Positions 16,539 to 33,684 of a DNA stretch of 64,000 bases are shown piece by piece. Location: NCBI GenBank assembly GCA_965372795.1, contig CBDVDR010000011.1, positions 43,723-107,722 on the forward strand, given 5' to 3'. The DNA comes from an uncultured bacterium. GTDB lineage: Bacteria; Zixibacteria; MSB-5A5; GN15; FEB-12. Below the pieces are notes generated by a model. That model searched no databases. It was not told where the DNA came from and saw nothing but the letters and a program-made list of their open reading frames with translations. The stretch's first letter is position 1. Each line of letters begins with the position of its first letter. The translations under genes and the position numbers were made by a program.

Positions 16539-16547
16539 TGTGGATAA
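16539..16547 (-). promoter_or_regulatory. Single consensus DnaA box
   Basis: TGTGGATAA is the reverse complement of TTATCCACA. Confidence 0.3.
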
Positions 16548-16580
16548 GAAAGTTTTTAAAAATCGTTTCATAATGTAACA

Positions 16581-16596
16581 AGGCATGGACTTTGCT
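16581..16596 (+). promoter_or_regulatory. Putative sigma54 (-24/-12) promoter
   Basis: AGGCATGGACTTTGCT: GG(16582-83)-N10-GC(16594-95) with TTGC. Confidence 0.6.
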
Positions 16597-16635
16597 CTAT
16601 AAAGCTTGATGAATAAGAATTTTAAAATAGCAATA

Positions 16636-19600
16636 ATGAAATTTCTAACGATATCCTTGTTAGCTTTTTGTCTAATTTCGATTCAGGCATATGCTATTGA
16701 GGTTGAGTCCGGCTTTGATGATGACTTTGTAATATCTAATCTTTTCGATAATAGTTCATCTTTAGTAACAAATTTTGAAATACACCAATTAGATAATTTT
16801 ACAATCGACTTATCTAATCCTAATGTTGAAGAGAGTTCAACCTATCTTCTTCAATTTGATATTTCACGCTCAGATTTTTTGAAACTTGGAAACGGAGGCT
16901 TCTCATTTTTATTCCCTCCGGGATTTGATTTATCAAATGCAGATGTTACTGATATTCAAGACTCGGTTTCTCAACATGAATATTCAATTTATAGCGCATC
17001 GGTCTTTGGTCAATTGTTAACCGTGCGTGTTTTAAGAAGCAAAAACGATGAATCGAGTGACGAAAGTTTAGATTTTGCTGTTACGATTCGCTTAGAGAAT
17101 GTTATAAATACTAATATCGCCGGGCAATACGCTTTATATGGATTAGCTTTTGATAAAAAATTGCGCCTAATTGCTGGACCTACCAAATCAAATTTATTTG
17201 AAATCCTTGGTTCCAATGGACTGACTATTGAACTGACTCCTTCTGAGGATTTAACAGTTCAAGCCGGTGACGATATCAATTTCGAATTAACTGGATATGA
17301 CTTAAATGGAAATCCGGTAGATCTTGAAAATGTAAGCTGGCTTTTAAAACCGGGCTCTGATCAAATTGGATATTTTGACGGTTCCACTTTTAAAACTCAA
17401 AAAGTCGGACAGGGAATTATACAAGCTGTATATAAAAGCGAAATTATTGAAAGTGGACTCATTACAGTGATACCCGGAGAGTTAGCTTTTATCGAGCTTG
17501 ATATTTCCCATAACCAGGTGGTTGGGTATCCGCTTCAAACCAGAGCAAAAATATATCTTTTGGATAGTTTCGGAAATTTCAAAACTGATTATGATCTTCT
17601 GAATAATCCGCTTGAGTTATCAATTTCCGAGGGTGTGATTTCTCCTGATTTAGTTAATGATAATTCATTGTTGATTGAAGGGGTTATTGATCTTCTACCA
17701 TTAGAAATTCAATATGAAGGTCAATCAGTTACTGTTGAAATGTATGCATCTTCTAACGGAATTCAATCAAACAATTCGGTTGTTTCATTTAATGGATTTG
17801 AAATACTTGATGTTTTAAATTCAGATGGTACAGCTCTTTTCCGGGTATTGCCCAATCAGAGTCTTGAAATTAATCTATTTGCTTCAAATAACGGAACTCA
17901 AATAGCTTTAGACAAGCCTAAGTTGACAGCCTTTTATAATTCAAAGCCTGATGATTTCGTGACAACATTATTTGATGGAAGTTACGGTGGGATTATTAAA
18001 AATATTCCTATTATCTTACCGCCTCATACAGGGGATCCATCAGAAGATATTATAACATTTCAGATTTCGGCTGATTATTCTATCAACGGCAAGGTATTAA
18101 ATTATTTCACTGAAACAGAAATTCAGATTTTTATTGAAGAAGAATCCAAGCCGGACCTCTCGGTTGCAAATCTATTTCCAACAGTTGTCTCAGCCGGAAC
18201 AGATGCAGCATTTGAATTTGATCTGCTGCTTGAAGAATCATTTGGGGAAGTTTTGGAGGTTATTCAGGCTGAATTTAATTTATCTGGAAACTCTTTTAAT
18301 TCATCATCGGAACTCTTTTTTATAAATAATCAAATTCTACCGGGGAATAATAAAGTAACCAGTGGACCGATATTTATTCCACCGGTTTTATCTGACAATG
18401 AATTGGAAGCAAGTGTCTCGATCACTTATTCGGATTCAAAGGGGAAAATATCACAATTTAATAGTCATTTTGATGATATCTCTGTTTTGATTACGTCTGA
18501 AACGATTGTTGAAATTACAAATTTAACCATTATTTCACAAAATTCACCAAGAGTAAATATAAATCAGAACTTTACAGTTGAAGCAACTATAACAAATAAA
18601 TCTGATGTTGAGATTGTTGATCTTGAAATTCAATTAGCATCCAATGGAAGTTCTATTTTTGATGGAATAAGACTTGTTGAATTATCCGCTCTTGAATCAA
18701 AGATAATAAGTTTTCCCGTAACCGCTTCATCTGTTGCGACGATTAATGAAACTTTCATTTTGAGTCTGGTTTCTTCAAATGTAATCCAGTCCCCAATACA
18801 ATCACCATCAACATTTATTGTTATTGATGAACCGGCTGAACTTACATTGAGCTATTCATTGATTGGTATAACAAACAATCTCATTGAAAAAGGTAAAACC
18901 TTTTCATTGTTGGTGAATCTGACAAAAACCGGAACATCTGAAGTTTCCGATGCCTCGTATAAATTATTAATAGAAAATGATTTTGTTTCTGATCTGCCTT
19001 TAGATGGATTGTTAAAAGTAAACGAACAAATGATATTCAATATCACCGTTCCTGATTTTGCTGTAACAGCTAATTTTGATTTTAGTTTAACAGCTATACC
19101 TATTGAAACTAATACCTCTGTGAATGCCAGTATAAATCAAGAATCATTTAATTTTGATATTACAGTCTTATCAGATTCTCCTGAGCAAGCCACAGTGCGT
19201 ATTCGTCGAGTAATTGTTGAGGCGCCTAATGCACCAAGAATAAATATGAATCAAAATTTTGAAATTATTTGCTTGGTTGAGAACCTTTCAGAATTTAATA
19301 TTGCTGATCTTCGACTCAATCTGTCAACTAATGGATTCTCAATATTAACAGCAGAACAGTTGGTTTCGATTCCTGCCAATGATAGTATTGAAGTTCGGTA
19401 TCAAGTTACCGCAGCTTCAGAGATGAATGATAATGAAGTGTTTACTCTTGAAATTTTATCTACCAATGTAAATATTTTAAATCCGGTTGATAATATCGCT
19501 TCTGTAATAATAGAAGCACCAGTAAATATTGAACTGAATCATAATCTGTTCAATGTGCATAATGGCGTTGTCAGCAGGGGCAGTAAATTCTCAATAGCTA

Positions 19601-20655
19601 TTGAGTTAAAAAATCTTGGCACCGCCCAGGCAACTTCAGGATTTTTTGAGTTGAATACTTTTGGAACTGACCTTGGACGGGAATACCAACCACTTGGTGA
19701 GATTGCTGTAAACGAATATATAATTTTCAACTTTACCGCTCCAATGTTTGATACAACTTTTGAAATAGAATTTTCTTTAACCGAAATACCTATTGATGTA
19801 AACACAAATCATCCCGCACAAATAAATAAAACTAAGCTGAATTTTACCTTTACAGTCAAATCACTTGACGGTTCACTCTTTGTTGAAGCAAATAAAATTG
19901 GCACTAATCTTTTAATCCCGGACCGGGTTAAAGAGATGTTCCAGATCGGTTTCACTAATCAGGGTCATCAGGATCAATCAAGAATAGATGTAAATTCACT
20001 TGAGGTATACTTTACTGATCAAAATAATTTACCGCTTAACATTGAAGATAAAATTGCTCTTGAAGAGACCGGTTTTTATGACGGAAATATCCTGATTTCG
20101 ACGGCGGAAATATCAGACAATCGGATTACTTTTACATTAAATAATTTTTCGATAAGTCCATTAGCTACCAACAGTTTAAAATTCAAATCAAAATTCACCA
20201 AAGCGATCAATTCCCCGTTTAATGTGGTGCTTGATTTAAGAACTATCAAAGCTGTTTATGCCGAGGGACCGTTTATCAATCAATCTCCTGAGATTAGAAC
20301 TAGTGGCGATAAGCTTATTCTTGAGATAAAGTATATCTTTAAAGGCAAGACTCTTGAAAATTCAGTAGTTGTTCAAAATAATCCATTCGATCCCCGAATT
20401 GAGCCTCTGATTTTTACTTATGAATTGACCCTTGTGTCGGCGGTTGAGTATCGAATATTCACGTTGATCGGAGAAGAGGTTTTCTCTAAAAACGTAGCCT
20501 CCGGCCAATCAGGTACTATTGTCGGTGAAAATATTTTTGAATGGAATGGTTTAAATAACAATGGATTGCTGGTTCTGAATGGTGTCTATATCGTATCTAT
20601 AAAAGTTCTTTCTACCGGAGAAGTTGTCCGTACAAAAGTGGCGGTGGTTCGATGA
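16636..20655 (+). CDS. Large exported Ig/CARDB-like repeat surface protein with T9SS type-B/FlgD-like C-terminal domain
   Basis: Signal peptide MKFLTISLLAFCLISIQAYA (alternative starts 16606/16609); acidic beta-rich repeats; C-term NNPFDP..YRIFTLIGEEV..WNGLNNNG..NGVY..KVAVVR. Confidence 0.75.
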   Translation: MKFLTISLLAFCLISIQAYAIEVESGFDDDFVISNLFDNSSSLVTNFEIHQLDNFTIDLSNPNVEESSTYLLQFDISRSDFLKLGNGGFSFLFPPGFDLSNADVTDIQDSVSQHEYSIYSASVFGQLLTVRVLRSKNDESSDESLDFAVTIRLENVINTNIAGQYALYGLAFDKKLRLIAGPTKSNLFEILGSNGLTIELTPSEDLTVQAGDDINFELTGYDLNGNPVDLENVSWLLKPGSDQIGYFDGSTFKTQKVGQGIIQAVYKSEIIESGLITVIPGELAFIELDISHNQVVGYPLQTRAKIYLLDSFGNFKTDYDLLNNPLELSISEGVISPDLVNDNSLLIEGVIDLLPLEIQYEGQSVTVEMYASSNGIQSNNSVVSFNGFEILDVLNSDGTALFRVLPNQSLEINLFASNNGTQIALDKPKLTAFYNSKPDDFVTTLFDGSYGGIIKNIPIILPPHTGDPSEDIITFQISADYSINGKVLNYFTETEIQIFIEEESKPDLSVANLFPTVVSAGTDAAFEFDLLLEESFGEVLEVIQAEFNLSGNSFNSSSELFFINNQILPGNNKVTSGPIFIPPVLSDNELEASVSITYSDSKGKISQFNSHFDDISVLITSETIVEITNLTIISQNSPRVNINQNFTVEATITNKSDVEIVDLEIQLASNGSSIFDGIRLVELSALESKIISFPVTASSVATINETFILSLVSSNVIQSPIQSPSTFIVIDEPAELTLSYSLIGITNNLIEKGKTFSLLVNLTKTGTSEVSDASYKLLIENDFVSDLPLDGLLKVNEQMIFNITVPDFAVTANFDFSLTAIPIETNTSVNASINQESFNFDITVLSDSPEQATVRIRRVIVEAPNAPRINMNQNFEIICLVENLSEFNIADLRLNLSTNGFSILTAEQLVSIPANDSIEVRYQVTAASEMNDNEVFTLEILSTNVNILNPVDNIASVIIEAPVNIELNHNLFNVHNGVVSRGSKFSIAIELKNLGTAQATSGFFELNTFGTDLGREYQPLGEIAVNEYIIFNFTAPMFDTTFEIEFSLTEIPIDVNTNHPAQINKTKLNFTFTVKSLDGSLFVEANKIGTNLLIPDRVKEMFQIGFTNQGHQDQSRIDVNSLEVYFTDQNNLPLNIEDKIALEETGFYDGNILISTAEISDNRITFTLNNFSISPLATNSLKFKSKFTKAINSPFNVVLDLRTIKAVYAEGPFINQSPEIRTSGDKLILEIKYIFKGKTLENSVVVQNNPFDPRIEPLIFTYELTLVSAVEYRIFTLIGEEVFSKNVASGQSGTIVGENIFEWNGLNNNGLLVLNGVYIVSIKVLSTGEVVRTKVAVVR

Positions 20656-22481
20656 CAAAGTTAACTTTGACTATTTTAACTATAATTATTCTGTTTTCAA
20701 GTACTTTTGTAAATGCCGGCGATGCCGGGCGTGAGTCGCCATTTATCATTGGTGCCGGAGCAAGAGCACTTGGAATGGGTGGCGGGTTTACTTCAATTGC
20801 AGATGATGCCACCGCGATCTACTATAACCCGGCGGCACTTGCTTCTTTGAATTATCAGGAAGTGTCATTTATGCACTCGACCTTTTTAGAAGGCACTCAA
20901 TACAATTATGTTTCCTGGGTATATCCTACAATGAAATTAGGCGGCTTTGGTATTGCAATGATGCGGATTGGTACTGATGATATTATCAGAAGAAACAATT
21001 TTATCGAAGAAGGCAGCTTTAACTATTCTAATATGCAAATTCTATTGGCATACGGCAGCAAAGTTCACGATAGAATTAGTCTGGGGATAAATGCTAAAAT
21101 AGTTCATCAATCTCTGGCGCAGTATTCAGATAACGGCATGGGTTTTGATTTTTCGATCAAAGCCAATTTAAATGATAATTTCTCTGCGGGCGTTATTGCC
21201 CGTGATTTGATCCCGCCAGAATTAAAAATAAATTCAAGCAATGAATCGGTCCCAATGTCTATAATGGGTGGAATTGCATTTCAAAAGTTTTATACCGAAA
21301 ATAATGTTAATCTTCTGGCATCTTTTGAGTTAGAAAAAATCGAAGACCGCTCAGTTAAAATTCATACTGGCATAGAAACTGTATTTAGTAATATCTATTC
21401 TTTACGGTTAGGTTACGACCGGGATAATTTTGCCTTTGGTTTAGGATATAAGTACAACCGGCTTAATGTCGACTATACTTATAAATTTATTGATTATGTC
21501 GAAGACAGCCATCGTTTTTCATTGTCATTTGTTCTTGGACAATCAGTAAAAGATAGGAAAGCTAAAGCTTCTCAAAAAGATAAAGAGATCGGCTCAAGAA
21601 TTCTACTGGACGAAAGACAAAAGCAATCCGATTTATTTAAAGAACAGGCTGATTCTTATTATTATAAACTAAAACTTGATTCCGCCTTAGCCTTCTATTA
21701 TCGCGCTTTGGCATTTGATGAAAATAATGAAGAGATAATTGGAAATATAGCAGTTATTGAAAAATCTCTAAAAAATAAAGAGCGAAGTCAGCAAAAGTTA
21801 TCTCAGATAGAAATTGAGCAGAACGTCACTCTGAATAATTTCCTTGAGCAGGCTAATAAATTCTATGATAAGAAATTCTATCTGGCTGCTATGGATATGT
21901 TAAATCTTATTTTTGAAATTGCTCCTGATCATGAAAACGCAGCTCAGCTGGAGCTTAAGATTAACAATACAATCCAAACTGAAATTTCGGATAATTTTGA
22001 AAAATCAAAAAAAGCTGAAAAAGAAAATAATTATGTCATGGCTGTTGAAGCCTACAACCGGATATTACAGCTTGATCCAACTAATAAAGTTGCCAAAACA
22101 GCCCGAGATGCTATGGGGGCAAGGCTTGATGTTGCCCATCAGTTGAATCTTGGAATTAGATTTTATAAAGAAGAGAATTTTACTGAAGCATTAAAACGTT
22201 TTAAAGCTGTTCTTGGAATTATTCCTAATGAACCGGTAGCCCTGGAATACTTTAAGCGACTTCAAGGACCGGACAAAAAAACAACGACTCTTGAAGATTT
22301 ACAAAAAGATAAAGATGCCTGGAAGCTTTATCTTGATGGCTTAAGATTTATGCGCAACAATGAGTATGGCAAAGCGATAGAGGCGTGGGAGAAGGTTCTC
22401 AAAAAGTACCCGCTGAGTGTAGATACTCGTAACAATATGGAACAGGCAAAACTTCGTCTAAAGTCTGAAAAATCTAAATAA
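20652..22481 (+). CDS. PorV/PorQ-family (UPF0164-like) outer-membrane barrel fused to C-terminal TPRs
   Basis: Signal peptide; GAGARALGMGGGFTSIADDATAIYYNPAAL; SHRFSLSF barrel end; TPR helices; ATGA overlap with upstream gene. Confidence 0.8.
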   Translation: MTKLTLTILTIIILFSSTFVNAGDAGRESPFIIGAGARALGMGGGFTSIADDATAIYYNPAALASLNYQEVSFMHSTFLEGTQYNYVSWVYPTMKLGGFGIAMMRIGTDDIIRRNNFIEEGSFNYSNMQILLAYGSKVHDRISLGINAKIVHQSLAQYSDNGMGFDFSIKANLNDNFSAGVIARDLIPPELKINSSNESVPMSIMGGIAFQKFYTENNVNLLASFELEKIEDRSVKIHTGIETVFSNIYSLRLGYDRDNFAFGLGYKYNRLNVDYTYKFIDYVEDSHRFSLSFVLGQSVKDRKAKASQKDKEIGSRILLDERQKQSDLFKEQADSYYYKLKLDSALAFYYRALAFDENNEEIIGNIAVIEKSLKNKERSQQKLSQIEIEQNVTLNNFLEQANKFYDKKFYLAAMDMLNLIFEIAPDHENAAQLELKINNTIQTEISDNFEKSKKAEKENNYVMAVEAYNRILQLDPTNKVAKTARDAMGARLDVAHQLNLGIRFYKEENFTEALKRFKAVLGIIPNEPVALEYFKRLQGPDKKTTTLEDLQKDKDAWKLYLDGLRFMRNNEYGKAIEAWEKVLKKYPLSVDTRNNMEQAKLRLKSEKSK

Positions 22482-22524
22482 AGTTTTAATAGACGCATCG
22501 AAGTTGGCACCATAATATATCATT

Positions 22525-24573
22525 ATGTTTGAACGTCCCGCCAAAGAGATAAATGCCGAATTTATGGCAGAGGAGCGGTTCCTTGATAGTATTCAAAGAA
22601 TTGTCAGGGAAAGCTGCGTTATTGCCGGATTAAGTAAGAAGATTACTTCCACCGTCCAGCTTGCTATCGAAGAAGGTGCCACCAATATAATCCGCCACGC
22701 CTATCTCTATAAAAAGGGAACGATCAGACTTCGAATCGTTATTTATAAAAAACAGATTGTCTTTTCTTTAATTGATACCGGAAAATCGTTTAATCCCGAA
22801 GGAACCTCGAGCCTTAATCTCGAACGGCTGGTAGAAACCGGACGAAAGGGAGGCTTAGGTTTCTACATGATCAAGAAGATCATGGATTCAGTTGAATATA
22901 TATCGGTTGGCGGATATAACGAACTTCGGATGATAAAAAGGATTACATCCGTTACCACACATACGAGACCAATATTAAGACGCTTATTCTCATTGAGAGT
23001 TAAATTCTCATTCTGGACATCATTTGTAATGGCTTTAATAATCGGAGGTTCATTTTATTTTATAAGCCTCAGAACTTATGATAGAATTAATGCCCACCTT
23101 CATGATACCGTAAAGACTCTCACCGAAACGATCGCCTATCAGTCTTCAGGTTTAATTCTTAACCAGCGAAGCGGGGTTGAATTTGATCAGATGATGGTAA
23201 GTTTCCTGAGGGCAAGCTCTGAATTCAGGCAGGTTGTGCTAACTGACGCCAGAGGATTGATTCTTGCAAACTCTGAAGATGTCAGTAACATTAGAGAACA
23301 GTACATTGCTCCGACAGCTTATGAAGTTGGCAAATATGCATCTTTTATTGAGAATAATGAAAAGATGTATTTCCTTTCAATCAAGATTTTATCTGGTAGT
23401 CAAGTTTTTGGAAATGTTAATGTGGTTTATTCAGATGAAAATATATCATCTAAAATTGAAAATGCTCAGCAGGAAGTTATCTTTTTAATGTTGTTCTTGA
23501 GCATGGTCGGCATCGTAGCAATATACTTTTTATCAAACTATTTTGTGACTCCAATTGCAAGGATAACACATCGGGTAAAAAGATTTACTTCGGGAGAACT
23601 TGAAACAGAAATGCCGCTAGAGCGAGCCGAAGAATTCTTTGAAATTTCAAAAGCGTTTAATCAGATGATGACCCGTTTGAGTCGGGATCAGAAAAATATA
23701 ATTTCCAGAGAAAAACTTGCCAAGGAAATTGAAGTAGCCTCTCAAATACAGAAAACTTTACTACCGGGAAAACTTCCGGAAATTGAAAATCTTCAGGTAG
23801 ATGCTTTTTACAGGGCAGCTTCTTTAATCGGAGGAGACCTTTATGATGTTATTGAAGTTATGCCAGGGAGGTACTGTCTGGTAATTGCCGATGTCTCCGG
23901 CAAAGGTGTGCCGGCATCAATGGTGATGTCTATGCTTCGTACGATAATAAGGATTTATTCTTCAGAGGCTAAATCATCAAAAGAAATTCTTGTCAGAGTA
24001 AATTATTATCTCGAAGAAAATATTCCACCAGGTATGTTTGTAACGGTTATGCTGATTATCTATGACTCAAAATCAAAAAAAATAAATCTTGTCTCAGCCG
24101 GGCATAATCCTCTGTTATATTTTAATGCGGAGGCTGGTGAAGTTATAAAAATTAATCCATCTGGGATGCCTCTTGGAATTTCATCAACGCTCAATTCTAC
24201 TTTTGAAGACAAACTTGAAGAAGTCTCTATGACAGTTAAAGACAACGATCTGTTATTTTTGTATACCGATGGGATTACTGAAGCGAAGGATACTTCAGGC
24301 AATGTTTACGGTATGGAGAAACTAAATGAATTTATCAGTTCACTGGCAACTTCAAATCCAATATTAACGGTCCAGGAGATGACTAAAAAAATAAGTCAGG
24401 AACTTGATCAATTTGCCGGATATGAAGAACAAAATGATGATATTACTTTTGTCATTGCAAGACATGGGATACCTGCTAAAATCAAAAATGTCCCTTTAGA
24501 AGGTAAAAATCACGTAAAATTAGAGACAAAAGAACTTAAGGTCAAAAATAATACAACTAAGAAAGAATCATAA
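22525..24573 (+). CDS. Membrane RsbW-type Ser kinase/HAMP/SpoIIE-type PP2C phosphatase fusion
   Basis: HATPase boxes EEGATNIIRHAY, DTGKSF, GGLGF; two TM segments; HAMP; PP2C motifs GGDLYD, ADVSGKG, SAGH, YTDG, DDIT. Confidence 0.9.
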   Translation: MFERPAKEINAEFMAEERFLDSIQRIVRESCVIAGLSKKITSTVQLAIEEGATNIIRHAYLYKKGTIRLRIVIYKKQIVFSLIDTGKSFNPEGTSSLNLERLVETGRKGGLGFYMIKKIMDSVEYISVGGYNELRMIKRITSVTTHTRPILRRLFSLRVKFSFWTSFVMALIIGGSFYFISLRTYDRINAHLHDTVKTLTETIAYQSSGLILNQRSGVEFDQMMVSFLRASSEFRQVVLTDARGLILANSEDVSNIREQYIAPTAYEVGKYASFIENNEKMYFLSIKILSGSQVFGNVNVVYSDENISSKIENAQQEVIFLMLFLSMVGIVAIYFLSNYFVTPIARITHRVKRFTSGELETEMPLERAEEFFEISKAFNQMMTRLSRDQKNIISREKLAKEIEVASQIQKTLLPGKLPEIENLQVDAFYRAASLIGGDLYDVIEVMPGRYCLVIADVSGKGVPASMVMSMLRTIIRIYSSEAKSSKEILVRVNYYLEENIPPGMFVTVMLIIYDSKSKKINLVSAGHNPLLYFNAEAGEVIKINPSGMPLGISSTLNSTFEDKLEEVSMTVKDNDLLFLYTDGITEAKDTSGNVYGMEKLNEFISSLATSNPILTVQEMTKKISQELDQFAGYEEQNDDITFVIARHGIPAKIKNVPLEGKNHVKLETKELKVKNNTTKKES

Positions 24574-24636
24574 TAATCTCTTGCCATTTGCCGATTATAT
24601 AATAAACTTAGCTTTTTATGGAATGTTTGATAAATA

Positions 24637-25317
24637 ATGGATAACACGATTAACATATCTTTACAGGAACGGGAAAATGACAACATCTCTTCGATTAGAA
24701 TTGATGGTGTTATAGATGCGATCACAGCCGGGGAACTTGAGCGTGTTATTCACTCCTTGATGAATAGAAATCGTTACCACATCATTATCGATCTTGCAGG
24801 AGTAGATTATATATCTTCGGCAGGATGGGGAATATTTATTTCTCACATCAAGGAGGTTCGTACCAATAGTGGCGATATAAAACTGGTAAATTTGATAGAC
24901 AATGTCTATGAAATTTATGAGTTGCTCGAGTTTGAAAATGTTTTAAAAGCGTATGACTCGCTTGAAGAGGCACGAAAAGATTTTGGTGAGTCAGTAGAAC
25001 CGCTAAAAAAAAAAGATAAAAATTCCAAAGTCTCAGTCATAGATAACGTTGGTACGGATTCATTTAATTATTCTCAAAACAGACAAAATAATATTTCCAA
25101 TTCACCGAATATGGCAGATATTGATCCAATTTCATATGTCCTTGCTCAAATAAAACAGGATCCGTTTATTACAATTTCAGAAATTAAACATGATTTTAAT
25201 AAAAAAAGCCCCAGCGATCATATTGGCTGGTGGCAAATTTTCGCAATCTTAAAAAGGCATAAACTGCTTTCCAAACGAGCCCGTTTTCGGTTTGCCCGTC
25301 AATATTATAGATCCTAA
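24637..25317 (+). CDS. STAS anti-anti-sigma protein with C-terminal HTH-like extension
   Basis: IDLAGVDYISSAGWG phosphoacceptor loop; about 100 extra C-terminal residues. Confidence 0.85.
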   Translation: MDNTINISLQERENDNISSIRIDGVIDAITAGELERVIHSLMNRNRYHIIIDLAGVDYISSAGWGIFISHIKEVRTNSGDIKLVNLIDNVYEIYELLEFENVLKAYDSLEEARKDFGESVEPLKKKDKNSKVSVIDNVGTDSFNYSQNRQNNISNSPNMADIDPISYVLAQIKQDPFITISEIKHDFNKKSPSDHIGWWQIFAILKRHKLLSKRARFRFARQYYRS

Positions 25318-25324
25318 TTATCAC

Positions 25325-25354
25325 TTGACACTTTCGACCCAAATCCTATATTAT
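25325..25354 (+). promoter_or_regulatory. Putative sigma70 promoter of the diguanylate cyclase
   Basis: TTGACA followed by TATATT (N16) or TATTAT (N18). Confidence 0.55.
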
Positions 25355-25375
25355 AATTAAACTTAGGTAAAGTTA

Positions 25376-27007
25376 ATGTCTTCAATTGAATCAATAATCA
25401 CAATATTGGCAGGCATTGTCGCCATATTGTCTATATCTTTAATTTATTATATCTATAGGGATAAAACACGCTACAAAGCTGTTAAAAAACTCGATACTAT
25501 AGAGTTTTCAACATTTTTGCGAACAAACAGCCTTGATGGTTCAATTCAGCAAGTTGCTGGAAAAGTAGGCGATTTGTTAAAATCTTCCTTCGAATGCGAT
25601 AAAATAATCTTTCTTCGCAAAAAAAGAGGAGTACTTGAGCTAAATTATTATCATGGAATTAATCGATTTGAACGGCGTGATTTTACAACTAAATATTCTC
25701 GTGAGTTAGACGGCATTTTAAGAACAGATTTTTTACCTCAGAAAATAGAACGTATCAAGGATATTTTTCCATCTTTGATTTTTGATCGCATCAAGGAATA
25801 TGGAATTGATCTTTATTTTCCAGTATATTGGCGAGAAAATTTGTATGGAATTTATTTTTTTAAAAGTAATCTGAAAACATCCGATCCTTCATTTAATATT
25901 TTGATCTCTTCTTTAGCCCAGTCATTATCAGCTGCCTATCATGTCAAATGGCATGAAATGAAACACAATGAATTGCTCGAAAAATATGAAAAAATTGAAA
26001 ATGCAAATTCTGTCAGTTCTGATCCTCTAACGGCAACTTATAATGAGCTAATGAAACTTACTAAAGAGAAAGATTCAGAACGTCTGGTTAAAAGAGTCGC
26101 TGAATATCTTTATCAGAGTCTGGGGATGAACAGAATTGCATTTATCTATGAATCAAAACAAGACAATAGAACCGAAATGCTAATTAAAGGTGAGAGTAAA
26201 AGTTCACTTAAAATTCCCGGAAGAGATTCGTTCAGTAATATTTTAAATGCCTTGGATTCAAAAAAAACAGTAACTCTTGATGAATTACTTGATAAAAATA
26301 TATCGTTGGTACATTGGATTACCGATTTGATAGATTTGGGCATGAAATATATAACACCTTTTCCTATTTCACCGAGTCGTCAAGGATTTGTTGCCTGGCG
26401 TGGCGAACCGTTTAGTGTTATTGATCATCAACTTTCCTTTATAAAAAAACATATTTCTGATCTGATAGAGAATGCCGAGAGTTTTGAACAAATGGAAGAT
26501 TTATCATATACCGATGGATTGACTGGATTGTCAAATCAGAGATATTTTAAAAAACGTCTGGATGAAGAAATTAGTCGCTGTCACCGTTATAATCGTAAGT
26601 TGGCTTTAATATTTTTTGATTTGGATGCTTTAAAGCAAACTAATGATAAATATGGACACTTAGCCGGTGATGACCTTCTTTATCAGGTTGGTCAAATTTT
26701 AAAGACATCAATCCGCTCAATTGATGTAATTGCCCGTTATGGGGGCGATGAATTCTGTGTTATAATGCCAGAATCAGATGAAAAAAACTGTACTCAATTT
26801 ATGGAAAGAATTCGCTCAAAAGTTACTAATTCCGAATTTGCCGCTGAAGGGGTTGACGGATTCATAAAATGTACTATTTCTCTTGGTGCGGCAGTTTACC
26901 CGAATCATGCCAAAGAGGCTAAAAAGTTGATTTATGCGGCTGACATGGCTTTGTTAAAAGCTAAAGAACAAGGCCGTGATAAATTCCTTATTCATAATCA
27001 GTCTTAA
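25376..27007 (+). CDS. Membrane-anchored diguanylate cyclase with GAF-like sensor regions
   Basis: N-terminal TM; TDGLTGLSN, ND.YGHLAGD, I-site RSID, RYGGDEF. Confidence 0.92.
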   Translation: MSSIESIITILAGIVAILSISLIYYIYRDKTRYKAVKKLDTIEFSTFLRTNSLDGSIQQVAGKVGDLLKSSFECDKIIFLRKKRGVLELNYYHGINRFERRDFTTKYSRELDGILRTDFLPQKIERIKDIFPSLIFDRIKEYGIDLYFPVYWRENLYGIYFFKSNLKTSDPSFNILISSLAQSLSAAYHVKWHEMKHNELLEKYEKIENANSVSSDPLTATYNELMKLTKEKDSERLVKRVAEYLYQSLGMNRIAFIYESKQDNRTEMLIKGESKSSLKIPGRDSFSNILNALDSKKTVTLDELLDKNISLVHWITDLIDLGMKYITPFPISPSRQGFVAWRGEPFSVIDHQLSFIKKHISDLIENAESFEQMEDLSYTDGLTGLSNQRYFKKRLDEEISRCHRYNRKLALIFFDLDALKQTNDKYGHLAGDDLLYQVGQILKTSIRSIDVIARYGGDEFCVIMPESDEKNCTQFMERIRSKVTNSEFAAEGVDGFIKCTISLGAAVYPNHAKEAKKLIYAADMALLKAKEQGRDKFLIHNQS

Positions 27008-27141
27008 CCCTCTAAAAATTAGTGATTTAGCTGTTTTTTTTATACTTTACAGAAGTATTTTCTTAACCTATATTTTTACGCCTAAATTGTAATTAAAATA
27101 TACCGATTTGGATAATAAATAACTATCAAGGAAGATATCGA

Positions 27142-28107
27142 ATGAAATCTTATAGATGTATAATATTATTATTGTTCTTGGGACTTATTTTATCTCCGGC
27201 TGTTACAAAAGCAGAGTACAAAATTGGTCCGGAAGATGTTCTTGATATAAGTTTTTGGCAAAAAGATGATCTAAATACTACTGTTCGTGTTAGTAAAAGC
27301 GGTAAAATTACACTTGATGTAATCGGTGAAATTGTTGCGGCTGGAAAGTCTACAAAAGAGCTTCAGGAAGAAATCGCAAGAGAAATATCCCGTTTAAATA
27401 AAAATGTCACTCAGGCTGTCGTCAGAATCAGTATCTATAATTATCAGTTTGTATTTGTATCCGGCCAGGTTATTGAACCGGGTAAAATTACATTTGAAGA
27501 AATTCCTGATCTTTGGACAATCATCAATGAAGCCGGTGGTATTAACGAAAATGGAGACCTTTCAAGAGTCACAATAATTCGTGGTGGGGATGGAGCTGGG
27601 GAAGTCATAACAGTTAATGTATCCGATGCTATTGCCAAAGGTGAAATCAACAAACTGCCTAAAATTAGGCGACAGGATACAATCGAAATCTCTCGTACTC
27701 CTTCAGGTATATATTCTGGAGATTTATCAAAACAAATCAACAGAAAAAACGTTTTGTATGCTATCGGAGCTGTGAATACTCCGGGGCTTCTGACTTTTGA
27801 GGAAAATGTTGATATCCTTGAGGCATTAACAATGGCTGGTGGTCCGTCATCAGATGCGGACCTTTCGAAAGTAATAGTAATAACCAGAGATGGGTATTAT
27901 GCTCAGACCTATCTAATTGATTTGAATAAATATGCTGAAACCGGAGCGATTCCCCGGTATATAATGCAAAGAGAGGATGCTTTGATTATTCCTCAAAAAT
28001 CAACGGGTGGATTATTTGGGATTGATTGGATAACACTTGGAACAATGGCGGGAGTTGTAACCTCAGGAATCTTGATATACAATCAAGTTTTTTCAAATGA
28101 TGAGTAA
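27142..28107 (+). CDS. wza: Polysaccharide export protein (Wza/OPX, SLBB repeats)
   Basis: YKIGPEDVLDISFW Poly_export motif, two SLBB modules, C-terminal hydrophobic helix. Confidence 0.88.
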   Translation: MKSYRCIILLLFLGLILSPAVTKAEYKIGPEDVLDISFWQKDDLNTTVRVSKSGKITLDVIGEIVAAGKSTKELQEEIAREISRLNKNVTQAVVRISIYNYQFVFVSGQVIEPGKITFEEIPDLWTIINEAGGINENGDLSRVTIIRGGDGAGEVITVNVSDAIAKGEINKLPKIRRQDTIEISRTPSGIYSGDLSKQINRKNVLYAIGAVNTPGLLTFEENVDILEALTMAGGPSSDADLSKVIVITRDGYYAQTYLIDLNKYAETGAIPRYIMQREDALIIPQKSTGGLFGIDWITLGTMAGVVTSGILIYNQVFSNDE

Positions 28108-28125
28108 TTTTAAGATAGAATAAAT

Positions 28126-29625
28126 ATGAATAAACCAGCGAATCAAAATTCTTTCGATGTAAAAGATATCGTGGGCATAATTAAGCTCAGGAAATGGTTT
28201 TTAATTATACCGATTCTTCTGACAACAGTAATCGCCTATGGCGGATCATTCTGGCTTGTCCCCGAGTTTCAAGCCTCAACTATTATCTGGATTGACAAAC
28301 CAGCTTCAGCTTCAAGAGAGTTAATGAGCATTATTGGAAGTGAAAGATTTGTCAGAGAGAGTAATGATGATCGGAGAAGGAAACTCCAGGCTCTTCAAAA
28401 TGAAATAACTTCGCAGAATTATTTGTTTCAATTAATCAGAAATATGAAACTTGACAATGATGCTGATCTTACCGAAGATGCTACAAAACTCCGAGAAAAA
28501 AATCCGGGATTTACGGTTGAGCAGTTAAAATATAATATTTTGCTTGGAAATCTAAGAGATCAAATCAAAGTTTCCTACGTAGGTAAAGATCAAATTGAAC
28601 TGACCGTCAAATCTACTTCTCCTTCACTGGCTCGAGATATTGCAACCAAACTGACCGAGATAATGGAGAGTGAAAAGACAAAATACGAGCTTGAAAAAAT
28701 TCTTGATAATCAGAATTTTGCTGACTTACAGCTCACAAAAAGGGAGTTCTATTATCAACAGGCAATTGATTCTTTAACCGAAGCAAAATCTCGGATGACC
28801 AATATTAGTCTTTCGAACGAAATTTCATCTGAGACTAATAGGCAGGAAATTACTTCTGAAATAAAACAGGCAAAAGATGACATAACCTATTATAACAATC
28901 TCATGATTTCAATTAAAACTCAATTAAAACAGGATGATCTTGACAAAGTGCGGTTAAAATATTCTGATTCTTTAATTAGCCTCAGAGCAAGTATTGAAGG
29001 TCAGCTTGTAACCTATGTTGAGCTGATGGAAAAATATGAGTGGACGGAACAGAACGTTATTAATGTCAATATTGGAATAATAGACAATATAAGAGTGCTT
29101 GTCTCCGGAATTCAAAATCAAGTTGAAAACCAACACAGCTCACTTGAGATAAACCAACAGCGACGGTTGAAAGATTATTTTGTTGCTAAAGAAAACTACG
29201 ATATCTCAAAATCCCGCCAAAAACATTTAGCCAACGCTTTTGATGACCTTGTCGAAAGAATCAATTCAATACCTCGTATGGAAGCGGAGATCAGTGACCT
29301 TGAAAGCCGGGTTGAAGAGGCTCGTCGTTACCGAGACGCTTTTAAGTCTGAAGAAACTACCGTTGAAATTTTATCTGAACAGGCAAAAGGAAGAACAAAA
29401 TATAAAGTGATTGAGGCTGCACGGACTCCATTGGAACCGTTCTGGCCCGATAAAAATAAAATAGCAATTTTGGGTCTTATTCTTGGCTTTGTGATAGGCG
29501 GAATCGCTGTTCTGCTTGGAGAAGTTCTCGATAGCACTTTTAAACGAACAGAGGATGTCGAGAATTTGCTCGGACTGCCTGTGATCGCTGTAATCCCCAA
29601 AATCGATAAACTAAAATTCAGGTAA
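28126..29625 (+). CDS. Polysaccharide co-polymerase / chain-length determinant (membrane part of split Wzc)
   Basis: Two TM segments flanking a coiled coil; PLEPFWP-K, DVENLLGLPVIAVIP. Confidence 0.85.
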   Translation: MNKPANQNSFDVKDIVGIIKLRKWFLIIPILLTTVIAYGGSFWLVPEFQASTIIWIDKPASASRELMSIIGSERFVRESNDDRRRKLQALQNEITSQNYLFQLIRNMKLDNDADLTEDATKLREKNPGFTVEQLKYNILLGNLRDQIKVSYVGKDQIELTVKSTSPSLARDIATKLTEIMESEKTKYELEKILDNQNFADLQLTKREFYYQQAIDSLTEAKSRMTNISLSNEISSETNRQEITSEIKQAKDDITYYNNLMISIKTQLKQDDLDKVRLKYSDSLISLRASIEGQLVTYVELMEKYEWTEQNVINVNIGIIDNIRVLVSGIQNQVENQHSSLEINQQRRLKDYFVAKENYDISKSRQKHLANAFDDLVERINSIPRMEAEISDLESRVEEARRYRDAFKSEETTVEILSEQAKGRTKYKVIEAARTPLEPFWPDKNKIAILGLILGFVIGGIAVLLGEVLDSTFKRTEDVENLLGLPVIAVIPKIDKLKFR

Positions 29626-29628
29626 TTT

Positions 29629-30747
29629 ATGGAAACTTATAGACTCAGCAGTAAATTAATCGAGATAAACAGAGAATTTTTGATAAAAACCTCGAATGAC
29701 GTGAAAGTTAATTCTGTGATTTCGACCGTTTATGTGAACGGGGAAGAAACAGAAACAGCAAAATGCCCTCATCCGGTTGAGTTCTCGCCCGAAGAAATAT
29801 TAACGCTTGTTAAGAGTAAGCATTCTGAAAAAAAGGCTGAAGTTGAAGTCATGTTAAAATGCTATAACGAAACTATGGAAAGCGGCGAGTCAGAAAGAAT
29901 GTTTCAATTAGGCACCGCATTTTTCTATAAAAAATATTCCAGAGAATCAAGAGAACTTTTTAACTCGGCAATTGCCCTTAACCCGCAATTTCACCAAGCA
30001 TGCAATTATCTGGGAATGGTTGAACTTGAGATGGGTGATCTGAATAAGGCTGTTGAGGTTTCTGAAAAAGCGGTCTCAATGAAACCTGGTTTTGCTGATT
30101 ACAGATTTAACCTCGGACATGCTTACTTGGCTATAAAAAATTGTCCCAAAGCAGTTAGGGAATTTGAAGAAGCCATCAGTACGAATCTTTATTATGCTGA
30201 TGCTTACATTAGTTTAGCACTGGCTTATTTATTGAATGCAATTGAACAGCAGAATATTACTTTGTTTCAAAACGTCTTAACAAAGACAATTGATGCGGTA
30301 AAAAAAGCTTCAATAATTGATCCGTTCTTCGATAATGAAATTCATAAAGATGGGTTAATTGCCATAGAAGCATTGGATGTTGAAGTTGCTTTTGCAATGT
30401 TTTCAAAACTTCTCAAAAATAAAAAAGAAAAACGTGACATTGAACTTTCTGATTATTATGTGAAATATTTATATTCGAGTGATGCAAATGACGACAAAAC
30501 CCTTTCTCACAGGATCAACTATTTAAAAGAGGAGATTGAAAAATATCCTACTTATGCAGACCTCCACGATGAAATCAGTTCATGTTATTTGTCATTAGCC
30601 AGAAATTATTGGCAAAATAGTCTCAATCATTTGCAGAAGGCACTGGATATTAATCCATCACTTGATAATATAAATAATTTACTTGAAGAGGCTGGCAAAG
30701 AGATTGAAAATATAAATAGAGTTATTTCCGGGAAATCAAAAATTTAA
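29629..30747 (+). CDS. Cytoplasmic TPR protein
   Basis: Multiple TPRs (PGFADYRFNLG, PTYADLH); no signal peptide. Confidence 0.8.
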   Translation: METYRLSSKLIEINREFLIKTSNDVKVNSVISTVYVNGEETETAKCPHPVEFSPEEILTLVKSKHSEKKAEVEVMLKCYNETMESGESERMFQLGTAFFYKKYSRESRELFNSAIALNPQFHQACNYLGMVELEMGDLNKAVEVSEKAVSMKPGFADYRFNLGHAYLAIKNCPKAVREFEEAISTNLYYADAYISLALAYLLNAIEQQNITLFQNVLTKTIDAVKKASIIDPFFDNEIHKDGLIAIEALDVEVAFAMFSKLLKNKKEKRDIELSDYYVKYLYSSDANDDKTLSHRINYLKEEIEKYPTYADLHDEISSCYLSLARNYWQNSLNHLQKALDINPSLDNINNLLEEAGKEIENINRVISGKSKI

Positions 30748-30748
30748 T

Positions 30749-31546
30749 ATGTCAAAAAAAAACAAACCAATAGATTATTATTACAGTTCCGACACACCGT
30801 TCGCTAACGAGTTTCGAAGGCTGTTAGTTAAGATAATAAAAAGTGGCACCGGTTCTGATGAGAAATCTATTATGTTAACTTCGGCGATGCTCTCCGAAGG
30901 TAAATCTACAATTTGTTCTTTTCTTGGAATTACAGCTGCAAAGCAAAACGGATTAAAAACTTTAATAATTGATTCTGACCTCAGGAGACCATCAATTCAT
31001 CGTTTTTTTGATGTTGAGAGAAAACATGGTATATCAGACATTCTGGTTGATGGTTTTGCTGCGGTTGAAGCTGTTAAAAGAACTTCTATCGAAAAACTTG
31101 ATATCATAACTTCCGGTTCTTCTTATGCCCACCCGGCTGAAATTTTTGATGCTGAATCTATAGGATATATTATTGAGGAATTAAAATTCTATTATGATTT
31201 AATTTTGGTTGATGCTGCTCCATTGATGCCGGTATCTGATCCGCTACTATTAGCGACCAAAGTTGATAAAATCATATTAGTAGTCAAAGCCGGATCGACA
31301 GACAGGGAAGTAGTGATAAAATCAGCAGAGATTTTGAGCTCCAGCAGGGACAAAATATTGGGTGTCGTCATGAATAATATGTCAAATTCATTACCATATT
31401 ACTATGACTATCAATATTACGGGTATGATTATGCCCCTTCCAAGTCCTCTGAGAATGCACCATTGCCAAACCCTCAGACTATCCCCAAAAAAGCAAGGAC
31501 ACGAAAATTAAATTCTATTTCTATTGAAACCAAGAAATCAAAATAG
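30749..31546 (+). CDS. CpsD/CapB-family BY tyrosine kinase
   Basis: Walker A TSAMLSEGKST, IIDSDLRRP, ILVDAAP, Tyr cluster PYYYDYQYYGYDY. Confidence 0.92.
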   Translation: MSKKNKPIDYYYSSDTPFANEFRRLLVKIIKSGTGSDEKSIMLTSAMLSEGKSTICSFLGITAAKQNGLKTLIIDSDLRRPSIHRFFDVERKHGISDILVDGFAAVEAVKRTSIEKLDIITSGSSYAHPAEIFDAESIGYIIEELKFYYDLILVDAAPLMPVSDPLLLATKVDKIILVVKAGSTDREVVIKSAEILSSSRDKILGVVMNNMSNSLPYYYDYQYYGYDYAPSKSSENAPLPNPQTIPKKARTRKLNSISIETKKSK

Positions 31547-31558
31547 TCTCTTAAAAAA

Positions 31559-32431
31559 ATGGATACTCTTAAAAATTTAATAACAGTCGATTGCGAAGAA
31601 TGGTTTGTCGCAGAAGCTTTAAAAAGATATTTTACCCATAAGGACTGGGATAAACTACAATCAACAGTTGTTCGCAATTCTCGAAAACTACTTGATATGT
31701 TTTACCATCATAAAGTCAAAGCAACCTGGTTCATGCTTGGCTGGGTGGCAGACCGGCATGCCGATCTGGTTCAAGAAATAGCTTCGGAGGGTCATGAGAT
31801 TGCCTGTCACAGCTATTATCATCGCAAGATTGATACTCTGACTCCACAAGAATTTGAGGAGGATGTGAACATGGCTATAACAGCAATCTTAAAAGCAACC
31901 GGTATTAGACCGGTTGGTTTTAGAGCCCCAAGCTGGTCAATCAATCCTTCAAGCTCTTGGGCTTTTGATATAATGTCACGGCTTGGTTTTGAATATGACA
32001 GCTCGATCTTTCCAATAAAACATGATATCTATGGTATGCCAAAAGGTCCCCGAACAACATTCAAAATCAAAGTTGATAATGATAATACTCTTTTTGAAAT
32101 TCCAGCTTCAACTTATCGTTTTTTCGGAAAAAATATTCCAATAGCAGGTGGCGGATATTTGCGCCATTCACCATATTGGTATACTAAGATGATGATTAAT
32201 CGGGTTAATCGAAAGGGACAACCGGTGGTTGCTTATATTCATCCCTGGGAGCTTGATCCAGATCCTCCCCAAATTGACGGATTATCTAAAATCGAAACTA
32301 TCAGAATGTACGGATCAACTTCTCTGCTTGAGCATAAATTCGATCAACTTTTATCGGATTTTGAGTTTACTACTATGATTGACTATCTTCAAGATTTTAA
32401 GAAAAGACCTATCGGTTTCAACCGAGCCTGA
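31559..32431 (+). CDS. Polysaccharide deacetylase (PEP-CTERM-locus/DUF3473 type)
   Basis: TVDCEEW, GHEIACHSYYH, GFRAPSWS, GGGYLR, YIHPWELDP. Confidence 0.9.
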   Translation: MDTLKNLITVDCEEWFVAEALKRYFTHKDWDKLQSTVVRNSRKLLDMFYHHKVKATWFMLGWVADRHADLVQEIASEGHEIACHSYYHRKIDTLTPQEFEEDVNMAITAILKATGIRPVGFRAPSWSINPSSSWAFDIMSRLGFEYDSSIFPIKHDIYGMPKGPRTTFKIKVDNDNTLFEIPASTYRFFGKNIPIAGGGYLRHSPYWYTKMMINRVNRKGQPVVAYIHPWELDPDPPQIDGLSKIETIRMYGSTSLLEHKFDQLLSDFEFTTMIDYLQDFKKRPIGFNRA

Positions 32432-32559
32432 TTCTCTATAAATCTCCTTAAATCTATCTTCGTAATCAGTTGTTTTTTTTAATTAGTTGTTGACTATAAG
32501 GGTATAAAGTTAAAACTTATAGCGGGAACAAGCGTGATAAATTTTTAAGGAGTTTAAAC

Positions 32560-33240
32560 ATGAGAAGATTTCTCGTAATTCTATTAATTTGCACAGTAAT
32601 GGCACCGGCTGTTTTTGCCAGAAAACCTAAAGACAAGGCTGGTAAGGTAACAGATATGGTCTATAAGGACAAAAAACTTAATTTTTCCATAACATTGGAT
32701 GATGGTTGGAAATATTCCATACAGAAGAATAAAAGCAAATACAGATTTATACTGGTTAAGAAAAATTACGATATCCCCTCAGATTATATTGATGCTCCGG
32801 ATTATACTATGATTCCCCGAATTACTCTTTGGGTTGATACGACATCTATGTCACCTTTTGTGTTTATTGATTCACTTTTAAGCCCGACTTATAAATCAAA
32901 ACAAAAAAACAATTTATATAAAGAATTTGATATCTTAAATGATAATATTTCTGAACAGGGAAGTATTCGTGAAAGACTGATTACCCGAAAGAAAAAAGCT
33001 TTTGAAATCGGTAAGAATAAAGCTCTGCGATGGAGTGGACAGATGAAATACCGTAAAGAGGTTGCGACGTCTTCTTCGTCAATCGGAGGTAAGCGTGTCA
33101 TCGGAGCCTATGGCGGATCATTGATTGCCGTAAAAAATGGTGATACGATCTATATGTTCCACATGATTTGCGAATGGAATTATTTTGATGCTCTTGTAGC
33201 TGAGATGACTAGAATTGTTCAAACGATTAAATTTGAATAA
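32560..33240 (+). CDS. Exported hypothetical protein, possibly PsbP-like fold
   Basis: Signal peptide; YKDKKLNFSITLDDGWK and C-terminal IVQTIKF pattern; AAGGAG RBS. Confidence 0.6.
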   Translation: MRRFLVILLICTVMAPAVFARKPKDKAGKVTDMVYKDKKLNFSITLDDGWKYSIQKNKSKYRFILVKKNYDIPSDYIDAPDYTMIPRITLWVDTTSMSPFVFIDSLLSPTYKSKQKNNLYKEFDILNDNISEQGSIRERLITRKKKAFEIGKNKALRWSGQMKYRKEVATSSSSIGGKRVIGAYGGSLIAVKNGDTIYMFHMICEWNYFDALVAEMTRIVQTIKFE

Positions 33241-33316: not shown

Positions 33317-33682
33317 ATGTGGATTGTTAGAGCGATACTGATCGCCATTGTAATTATTTGTGTTGTTGCATTTGCATTTTACAATGTCGGTCCGGGCAAT
33401 GAAGTTGATGTAAATTTGATTTATGTTACATTTACCAATGTTCCTATGGTAACGGTAGTATTCTGGTCTTTTGTAGCTGGTATATTAGTATCATTGTTTT
33501 TATTCATTTCGATTTATATAAAACTTTCCGTTCAGCTACGTACATCTAATAAAAGAGTACAAGCATTGGAGGGAGAAGTTACAGTTTTAAGAAACCGTCC
33601 GATTGAAGAGTCGGTCGAACTACTAAAAGGGGCTGACAGCAATGGTGCTGACATCGAGTCACCTTTTAAAAAGAGCGAGTAA
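33317..33682 (+). CDS. lapA: LapA-family membrane protein
   Basis: Two TM segments plus coiled coil; upstream of LapB-like gene. Confidence 0.75.
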   Translation: MWIVRAILIAIVIICVVAFAFYNVGPGNEVDVNLIYVTFTNVPMVTVVFWSFVAGILVSLFLFISIYIKLSVQLRTSNKRVQALEGEVTVLRNRPIEESVELLKGADSNGADIESPFKKSE

Positions 33683-33684
33683 GT

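Follow-up and report, generated by a model that had tools for sequence, protein, structure and literature searches.

The logic by which a partner switch controls a diguanylate cyclase or the production of exopolysaccharide (EPS) is already known. SypE, with the domain order kinase, REC and phosphatase, acts on the STAS protein SypA, which lies downstream of SypE (PMC10120452), in the syp polysaccharide locus of Vibrio fischeri (PMC4517449). HsbR of Pseudomonas aeruginosa is both kinase and phosphatase of HsbA, and phosphorylated HsbA (HsbA~P) binds the cyclase HsbD (PMC5085249). In the same species, aggregation is controlled by SiaABCD, whose components are a HAMP-PP2C phosphatase of the membrane plus a kinase, switch protein and cyclase (PMC8457831), and a partner-switch-like module controlling a polysaccharide layer has been reported from Anabaena (bioRxiv 10.64898/2026.04.08.717354). 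Two precedents concern the cell envelope: a cargo gene beside its own anchoring barrel (PorP/SprF-like) has been described for type B cargo (PMC9143113), and the FadL-like 14-stranded barrels of Treponema pallidum are followed by a helical, TPR-motif domain that the authors placed in the periplasm (PMC8407342). Here we describe a ten-gene locus in a 64,000-nucleotide stretch of contig CBDVDR010000011.1, from an uncultured bacterium of the Zixibacteria. The whole stretch is hereafter called the window, and the membrane kinase/phosphatase at the center of the locus is called KP.

The locus is a real conserved unit, as seen in its architecture, intact catalytic motifs, gene order, co-occurrence and domain fusions. 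We place just on the probable side the reading that it is one conserved surface-and-matrix control locus around a partner switch without a sigma factor. KP would reside in the inner membrane with its kinase and phosphatase domains in the cytoplasm and a periplasmic Cache-like domain and HAMP between them, and it would phosphorylate and dephosphorylate the neighboring STAS protein on a conserved serine. The state of this protein would set the output by two routes, both of which we regard as likely and which are modeled on the control of Syp polysaccharide by SypE/SypA and of HsbD by HsbR and HsbA~P. One route would run through the helix-turn-helix (HTH)-like tail of the STAS protein itself; the other, in Zixibacteria, would run through the adjacent GAF-GGDEF cyclase and an export block of Wza, Wzz, TPR protein, BY-kinase (bacterial tyrosine kinase) and deacetylase. 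The input would come from a T9SS-type (type IX secretion system) surface protein, probably held by a PorV-like barrel of its own. The TPR arm of this barrel would reach into the periplasm; its likeliest role there is that of a partner or scaffold for the outside domain of KP. We infer the protein contacts, the direction of signaling and the output, and trans-envelope signaling is a proposal.

KP, counted at E ≤ 1e-60, is present in 129 of the 151 genomes sampled from the phylum, nearly always in single copy; it was not found in the searched genomes of families f11, f12, f16 and f17 (families and loci carry our own handles). From the 128 other KP-positive genomes, 49 loci were picked for KP presence, long contigs and family spread, and 18 window proteins were compared by tblastn with the 20 kb around KP. 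The sample represents 14 of the 15 families with KP, without f19, whose KP match was at a contig end. The order surface protein, barrel/TPR, KP, STAS, cyclase, wza, wzz, TPR, BY-kinase, deacetylase is largely kept (counts in Table 1), and in f6 the cyclase and export genes are missing. An earlier note on this DNA, made from the sequence, had proposed that these genes form one module and had set unlinked sub-blocks in relatives, together with a lack of interactions, beforehand as the result that would speak against it; the sub-blocks are linked across the 49 loci.

Such conservation might reflect nothing but order inherited among close relatives, with genes that do not cooperate juxtaposed by chance. 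The co-direction of the whole window is compatible with this explanation, as is the fact that the flanking folD and lapA/lapB are conserved too in f1 and f4. However, the block survives the loss of its flanks. In the 11 loci of f5, f8, f9, f14 and f18, folD, the 226-aa open reading frame (ORF) upstream of lapA, lapA and lapB were each found in 0/11, whereas STAS, cyclase, wza and wzz were each found in 11/11, the barrel, surface protein, TPR protein and BY-kinase each in 10/11, and the deacetylase in 6/11. The export genes of f18 are inverted together, with their adjacency retained. Fusions that join KP with HTH, STAS and TPR domains, as well as the recurrence of the core in loci titled as other phyla, point the same way. 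Chance juxtaposition, already disfavored, is thus left with a very small probability.

The loci outside the phylum came from a scan of species-representative genomes that returned 80 loci. Twelve of them with a full-length KP (L015-L018 and L020-L027) are titled Calditrichaceae, KSB1, Latescibacterota, Eisenbacteria, Omnitrophota or 'uncultured'; these titles are unreliable and do not amount to a verified taxonomy (L010 carries the title Ignavibacteriales, yet its contig is identical with that of the Zixibacteria handle G040). The barrel lies directly upstream of KP in all 12 of these loci, and the C-terminal domain (CTD) of the surface protein and the STAS protein were each found in 9. As a specificity control, 55 loci that match the phosphatase part only (L034-L088) were inspected, and the barrel was found in none of them (0/55). 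These results show that the core (surface protein, barrel/TPR, KP and STAS) extends to loci whose titles name other phyla of the Fibrobacteres-Chlorobi-Bacteroidetes (FCB) group.

Table 1. Features of the locus and its flanks, with coordinates in the window and the number of Zixibacteria loci matched
Feature	Coordinates	Strand	Description	Loci with a match
Surface protein, 1349 aa	16606..20655	+	Signal peptide; Ig-like (CARDB-like) modules in repeats; last ~100 aa form a T9SS-like sorting domain	41/49
PorV-like outer-membrane barrel with TPR arm	20652..22481	+	Barrel at ~residues 69-295; C-terminal all-helical arm of ~310 residues	42/49
KP	22525..24573	+	RsbW-like serine kinase 15-138, transmembrane segment (TM), outside Cache-like domain ~183-315, TM, HAMP 335-386, PP2C 447-647	
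STAS switch protein	24637..25317	+	STAS 12-112, invariant SS 60-61, variable linker, four-helix HTH-like domain ~160-226	38/49
A10 run, candidate slippery site	25005..25014	+	Between STAS domain and HTH-like domain	
Diguanylate cyclase	25376..27007	+	Membrane anchor of a single TM at the N terminus; ~340 aa, possibly GAF-like; GGDEF, RxxD inhibitory site	39/49
Wza-type export protein	27142..28107	+	Poly_export and two SLBB; TIGR03027 117.8 bits vs cut-off 180	37/49
Wzz-type co-polymerase/chain-length determinant	28126..29625	+	Wzz/GNVR, without kinase domain	21/49
TPR protein, 372 aa	29629..30747	+	TPRs; no signal peptide	39/49
BY-kinase (tyrosine autokinase)	30749..31546	+	TIGR01007 152.7 bits vs cut-off 108; Walker A, C-terminal tyrosine cluster	37/49
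XrtA-system-type polysaccharide deacetylase	31559..32431	+	Polysacc_deac_1 and DUF3473; TIGR03006 313.9 bits vs cut-off 276.2	33/49
folD (flank)	15500..16381			27/49
226-aa ORF (flank)	32560..33240		Signal peptide; no Pfam or NCBIfam family	20/49
lapA (flank)	33317..33682			20/49

KP combines a kinase domain (HATPase_c_2, PF13581, 78.3 bits vs cut-off 27.4) with a phosphatase domain (SpoIIE/PP2C, PF07228, 163 bits), and two hydrophobic segments flank its outside domain of ~135 residues. Across 21 orthologues, E49, E50, N54, H58, D84, G86 and G109-G112 are invariant, as are the aspartates D438, D456, D582, D638 and D639 on the phosphatase side. By our assignment from the alignment, the former would represent the ATP-binding boxes (N, G1 and G2) of the kinase and the latter the metal-binding aspartates of the phosphatase. 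The Cache-type family sCache_3_2 is annotated on many of the listed KP homologues and was scored on two orthologues. Full-length homologues share 52-63% identity with KP, and their named sources are mostly Zixibacteria or GN15 among the best 120 of 5122 matches. Long forms of KP, 940-1468 aa, occur in f5, f8, f9, f14, f18 and the other-phylum loci and carry HTH_23/28/29/32 domains after the phosphatase; the long KP of L021 adds three STAS domains, and those of L018, L024 and L025 add C-terminal TPRs. No sigma factor was found among the 18 window proteins (rny to mutS) or the scanned neighbors, the rest of the genome not having been searched.

A gene for a ParA/MinD-like ATPase (AAA_31, CbiA), absent from the family of the window, was observed after KP in L118 (f5; L118:10308-11099), L121 (f9; L121:10500-11243) and the Latescibacterota-titled L021 (L021:14380-15117). 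It lies between KP and STAS in L118 and L121, and in L021 a TPR gene stands between it and the free STAS genes. In L123 (f14) and L126 (f18), the same position after KP is taken by ORFs of similar size.

The TPR arm of the barrel protein accompanies KP through the phylum. Searched for alone (residues 300-609, E ≤ 1e-8), the arm was detected in 124 of the 151 phylum genomes, and the per-family counts of arm and KP agree in 16 of 19 families. Neither was found in the searched genomes of f11, f12, f16 and f17, and both are present in 11/15 of f4; the counts for arm and KP differ in f1 (51 vs 53 of 54), f3 (2 vs 3 of 3) and f7 (8 vs 10 of 11). In the coordinate rows compared by eye, the gene for the arm ends at most ~100 bp from the KP gene. 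Furthermore, the barrel is missing in f7 and f15 (5/5 loci) and in L103 (f1), and there a gene of 255-292 aa that matches only the last third of the arm abuts KP. Three of these TPR-only genes (L131, L132 and L103) were translated, and their products have signal-peptide-like hydrophobic N-termini. In the two annotated loci, L131:9765-11505 (f15) and L132:6723-10257 (f7), a Big_5-type Ig-like protein is encoded upstream of the TPR-only gene, and hrcA-grpE, with dnaK after it in L132, lies immediately downstream of KP and its TPR-only partner, in the place that STAS, cyclase and export genes would take. Prediction of a complex between KP 180-322 and TPR arm 300-609, with alignments supplied, gave a score of 0.13 against a mark of 0.32, and this result weighs neither way. 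Comparative genomics gives good support to a tie between the TPR arm and KP. This is the strongest evidence for the idea of the earlier note that periplasmic TPRs act together with KP, and it is purely genomic.

The surface protein and the barrel are encoded by genes that overlap by 4 bp in the window, and the same overlap was observed in 7 of 10 examined loci having both genes. The Ig repeats and sorting CTD that had been proposed for the surface protein were seen as matches, all of them under curated cut-offs. The Ig-like repeats match CARDB (Pfam, E 4e-4), and the CTD scores 15 bits against the TIGR04183 cut-off of 23 and matches FlgD_ig below threshold (E 0.002). Further matches of the CTD were to PorU (E 3.5e-5) and PorZ (E 0.002), in both cases to the tail; these tails are held by PorV and PorQ. 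Other proteins of the same genome do exceed the TIGR04183 cut-off, and 12 further large ORFs of the genome have a similar CTD. In the KSB1- and Eisenbacteria-titled loci and in L017 ('uncultured bacterium'), the surface protein matches by its CTD only, with 33-43% identity.

The barrel exceeds the cut-off of NF033709 for the PorV/PorQ family (124.1 bits vs 90), with TPRs following, and falls below the equivalog cut-offs for PorV (35.2 bits vs 250), PorQ (67 vs 220) and PorV2 (100.9 vs 325). It also matches Pfam UPF0164 (E 5.5e-8). In its AlphaFold2 model (mean predicted local distance difference test [pLDDT] score, 88.1), residues 69-295 form a barrel and residues 299-608 form helices. By fold, it matches best two PorV chains of the Flavobacterium translocon, 8gl6_F (E 1.1e-12) and 6h3i_F (E 1.1e-11), with FadL and TodX next. 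The PorV and PorQ models both stop short of the C-terminal TPR arm, and we know of no PorV or PorQ protein with such an arm. The genome also encodes an SprA-like translocon protein (SprA_N, 73.6 bits in a 2059-aa frame). A second PorV-family barrel was observed in a long open frame of 931 aa (G000:C19:54715-57396), and the genome therefore has more than one extended PorV-like protein.

These features could also be read as a secretion or assembly checkpoint, in which KP would read the cargo loading of the barrel via the TPR arm and adjust the production of surface protein and matrix, a feedback on the assembly of the envelope. The genomic link between TPR arm and KP fits this explanation equally well, the CTD looks like those of PorU and PorZ, whose tails are retained, and a T9SS translocon is present in the genome. 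By contrast, the TPR-only variants have no barrel to report on, and no evidence here separates a checkpoint from surface sensing. We consider the checkpoint decidedly unlikely.

The STAS domain of the switch protein scored 61.7 bits with PF01740 and 63.8 bits with TIGR00377 (cut-off 53.45). Its motif reads DYISSAGWG, and S60 and S61 are invariant in 26 sequences. The C-terminal tail is conserved from Zixibacteria through to the Calditrichaceae-titled locus and is predicted to fold into four helices (pLDDT 95.7). With hhalign, this tail could be aligned to the HTH_32-type region of long KP forms (83%, E 8.6e-6), and a PDB profile gave a weak match to the RED subdomain of Sleeping Beauty (E 0.028). 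Most rows returned by a fold search were DNA-binding HTH domains, the best Z score being only 6.1, and Foldseek gave no match at E ≤ 0.001. The HTH that had been proposed on this protein is a candidate backed by fold and profile match, and Pfam gave no match in the tail.

A run of nine or ten A residues, corresponding to the A10 run of the window, is found at the equivalent site in 21/21 loci of f1 and f4 and in 0/17 other loci with a STAS match. In 13 of the 21 loci, the HTH-like tail lies in the -1 frame, and one added A lengthens the product from 129-150 aa to 224-244 aa. The tail is in frame in the other 8 loci and in the window; one A more or fewer shortens the product to 127-143 aa in these loci, and a change of the window A10 by one A in either direction gives a product of 127 or 134 aa. 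Random assembly errors are argued against because the frame shift has the same direction in 13/13 loci. These results suggest that slippage at the run may yield two STAS isoforms from one gene.

The HTH-like tail bears on a further explanation, namely that the locus consists of a regulator and its neighboring regulon without any contact spanning the envelope. KP would then sense a small extracellular ligand by its Cache-like domain, the STAS-HTH protein would control transcription of the neighboring surface-protein, barrel and export genes, and the TPR arm would serve only secretion or anchoring of the surface protein. A Cache-type fold is annotated on KP orthologues, HTH domains occur both on the STAS protein and in the long KP forms, and the best promoter-like site of the region (11 of 12 consensus positions) sits between the STAS and cyclase genes; conserved adjacency is equally expected of a regulator and its target genes. 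On the other hand, the fold matches of the tail are middling, and a secreted TPR-only gene still adjoins KP in 5/5 barrel-less loci of f7 and f15, even though the neighbors of the pair differ in L131 and L132, with Big_5 upstream and hrcA-grpE downstream. On balance, we take this explanation to be somewhat unlikely.

The diguanylate cyclase had been described as intact, and its GGDEF domain (PF00990, 161.5 bits) does carry the GGDEF motif with an RxxD site five residues before it; the active-site stretch reads RSIDVIARYGGDEF. Both motif and RxxD are present in 36 of 39 cyclase orthologues. The middle part of the protein is GAF-like by language-model features only (score 0.94), and Pfam gave nothing above chance-level rows for residues 1-370 (best E 0.019). 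In f2, the cyclase gene directly follows KP (229-bp gap in L110), and a STAS substrate may lie elsewhere in the genome.

In the export block, the BY-kinase has Walker A and at least four tail tyrosines in 36/36 orthologues. BY-kinases of the split type usually need a membrane partner of the Wzz type; Wzz is missing in 10 of 17 f1 loci and in all f4 and f2 loci (L092, L093, L095 and L097 are among those affected), where the BY-kinase stays. The 372-aa TPR protein is probably cytoplasmic because it has no signal peptide. Its gene adjoins STAS in f6 and f10 and is near STAS in three other-phylum loci. Homology of this protein to the C-terminal TPRs of long KP forms was considered and set aside as generic similarity (BLASTP E 2e-6 over 78 residues). 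A classical XrtA/PEP-CTERM locus was likewise rejected, since three of the four equivalogs are under their cut-offs (export, 117.8 vs 180; chain length, 95.1 vs 278.85; kinase, 130.9 vs 230.65; the deacetylase alone exceeds its own) and the exosortase is on another contig.

A number of observations weigh against the reading of the ten genes as one surface-and-matrix control locus. The 49 loci come from related genomes and are not independent observations. Within the phylum, wzz has a low count (Table 1), no STAS match was found in the 20-kb loci of f2 (L110-L113, 0/4), and f13 has the surface protein, barrel and KP only, with STAS, cyclase and export genes not within 20 kb; in f7 and f15, a TPR gene and KP are all that remains. 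The neighborhood conservation that the earlier note had suggested checking holds for the core, in Zixibacteria as in the other-titled loci, whereas the cyclase and export genes join it in Zixibacteria only: in the 12 other-titled loci, the cyclase was found in 0/12, and wza, wzz, BY-kinase and deacetylase in 0/12. The c-di-GMP (cyclic di-GMP) and EPS output is therefore a lineage-specific addition. The barrel and the CTD belong to general classes and neither is unique to the locus, since the genome encodes 10 barrels of the PorV family that pass the cut-off and no fewer than 13 proteins with such a CTD. No glycosyltransferase, flippase or polymerase was found in the export block. The exosortase (8TM_EpsH, 191.7 bits) and EpsI-family genes are on contig C4 (G000:C4:155052-155807; L138:8921-10383), far from the deacetylase of the window and beside genes for a UDP-glucose dehydrogenase and for two proteins with genuine T9SS type A tails. 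An Rfam search of positions 15000-34000 gave no match at E ≤ 1, hence no c-di-GMP riboswitch, and scans for promoters (78 found vs 69.4 expected from shuffles) and terminators (11 vs 11.3) were at chance level. Finally, the outside sensor of KP looks like a Cache domain, and Cache domains usually bind small ligands rather than proteins.

The interpretation of the earlier note is supported in part: signaling from a periplasmic TPR domain to KP, as proposed there, has co-occurrence, adjacency and the retained secreted TPR-only gene on its side, and the Cache-like sensor and the restriction of the cyclase and export genes to Zixibacteria against it. Taking both sides together, we still lean toward a single control locus around a partner switch. 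We hold unlikely the more far-reaching proposal that its core is an undescribed trans-envelope device of the FCB group, which would pass the state of the surface through the TPR arm to the partner switch, would be wired in Zixibacteria to c-di-GMP and slime and would be tuned in its STAS isoforms by slippage at the A-run.

With regard to layout, the ten genes proposed between folD and the lapA region were all found as consecutive ORFs and carry the named domains by Pfam and NCBIfam. They are bounded by folD and by the 226-aa ORF upstream of lapA and lapB, and successive gaps are -4, 43, 63, 58, 134, 18, 3, 1 and 12 bp. The proposed end of the locus at 32431 is exact; the proposed start at 16581 is wrong, the first ORF beginning at 16606 (TTG) or 16609 (ATG). 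Co-direction is real but of little weight by itself: all long non-nested ORFs of the window from 843 to 49979 are on the + strand, and the shared strand of the ten genes is therefore weak evidence. The 226-aa ORF is kept in f1 and f4 between the deacetylase and lapA.

If the physical link between TPR arm and KP is true, diderms would have a new route by which the cytoplasm is informed of the state of the surface or of type IX cargo. Through it, attachment and aggregation would also become open to testing in Zixibacteria and relatives, groups for which we know of no genetic system. The A-run of the STAS gene, in turn, is a candidate case of programmed recoding in a signaling protein. By record titles, the arrangement of KP, barrel and surface protein recurs in several uncultured phyla.

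We compared the locus with known systems. The earlier note had called it analogous to, though architecturally different from, SiaABCD, with which it shares a membrane HAMP-PP2C phosphatase as well as kinase, switch protein and cyclase. The SiaABCD kinase, however, is a separate protein, whereas that of the window is fused in KP, and SiaC, the switch protein, is not known to be a STAS protein. SiaABCD was rejected as the closest analogue, KP scoring only 59.6 bits with the SiaA model NF038263 (cut-off 700), and SypE/SypA and HsbR/HsbA/HsbD are closer. SypE/SypA resembles KP/STAS in its N-terminal RsbW-like kinase, central input, C-terminal PP2C phosphatase, small STAS partner and EPS locus, and neither switch involves a sigma factor. 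Compared by domain description, the center of KP differs from that of SypE in being an integral membrane sensor of TM, Cache-like domain, TM and HAMP, without a REC match. Moreover, the STAS protein of the window has an HTH-like tail behind an A-run, and a cyclase, surface protein and PorV-like barrel are attached to the switch. In the HptB-HsbR-HsbA-HsbD system, a bifunctional enzyme likewise sets the phosphorylation of a STAS protein, and HsbA~P binds the neighboring cyclase and promotes biofilm formation (PMC5085249). Unlike KP, HsbR is soluble and driven by a phosphorelay, and the available part of the description of the Hsb locus (PMC5085249) does not mention a surface protein, barrel or export block.

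On the envelope side, the barrel of the window resembles PorV/PorQ in passing the family model and in its best folds, which are PorV, and its cargo tail resembles those of PorU and PorZ; it differs from PorV, PorQ and PorV2 in lying under all three equivalog cut-offs and in its own TPR arm, which is outside the PorV and PorQ models. In the FadL-like proteins of Treponema pallidum, a barrel is also followed by a helical, TPR-bearing domain, but there the description of the arm is of a helical bundle bearing a single TPR motif, as against ~310 residues for the arm of the window; a link to signaling genes is not mentioned in the available part of that description (PMC8407342).

No description of the full gene set was found among the papers listed by a literature search that excluded subscription journals and supplementary files, in agreement with the statement of the earlier note that the set was not recognized as a described system. 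The parts are known, and the wiring as a whole appears undescribed. Matrix-controlling partner switches are known in a few Proteobacteria, where the input comes by soluble phosphorelays; in the window, by contrast, kinase and phosphatase are in one membrane sensor, evolutionarily locked to a barrel arm and a surface protein. The locus differs from the known systems in three respects: both enzymes are fused into one protein with a membrane sensor between them, the STAS protein is HTH-tailed and possibly recoded, and, as the chief difference, there is the conserved tie to the arm of a PorV-like barrel and to a secreted surface protein.

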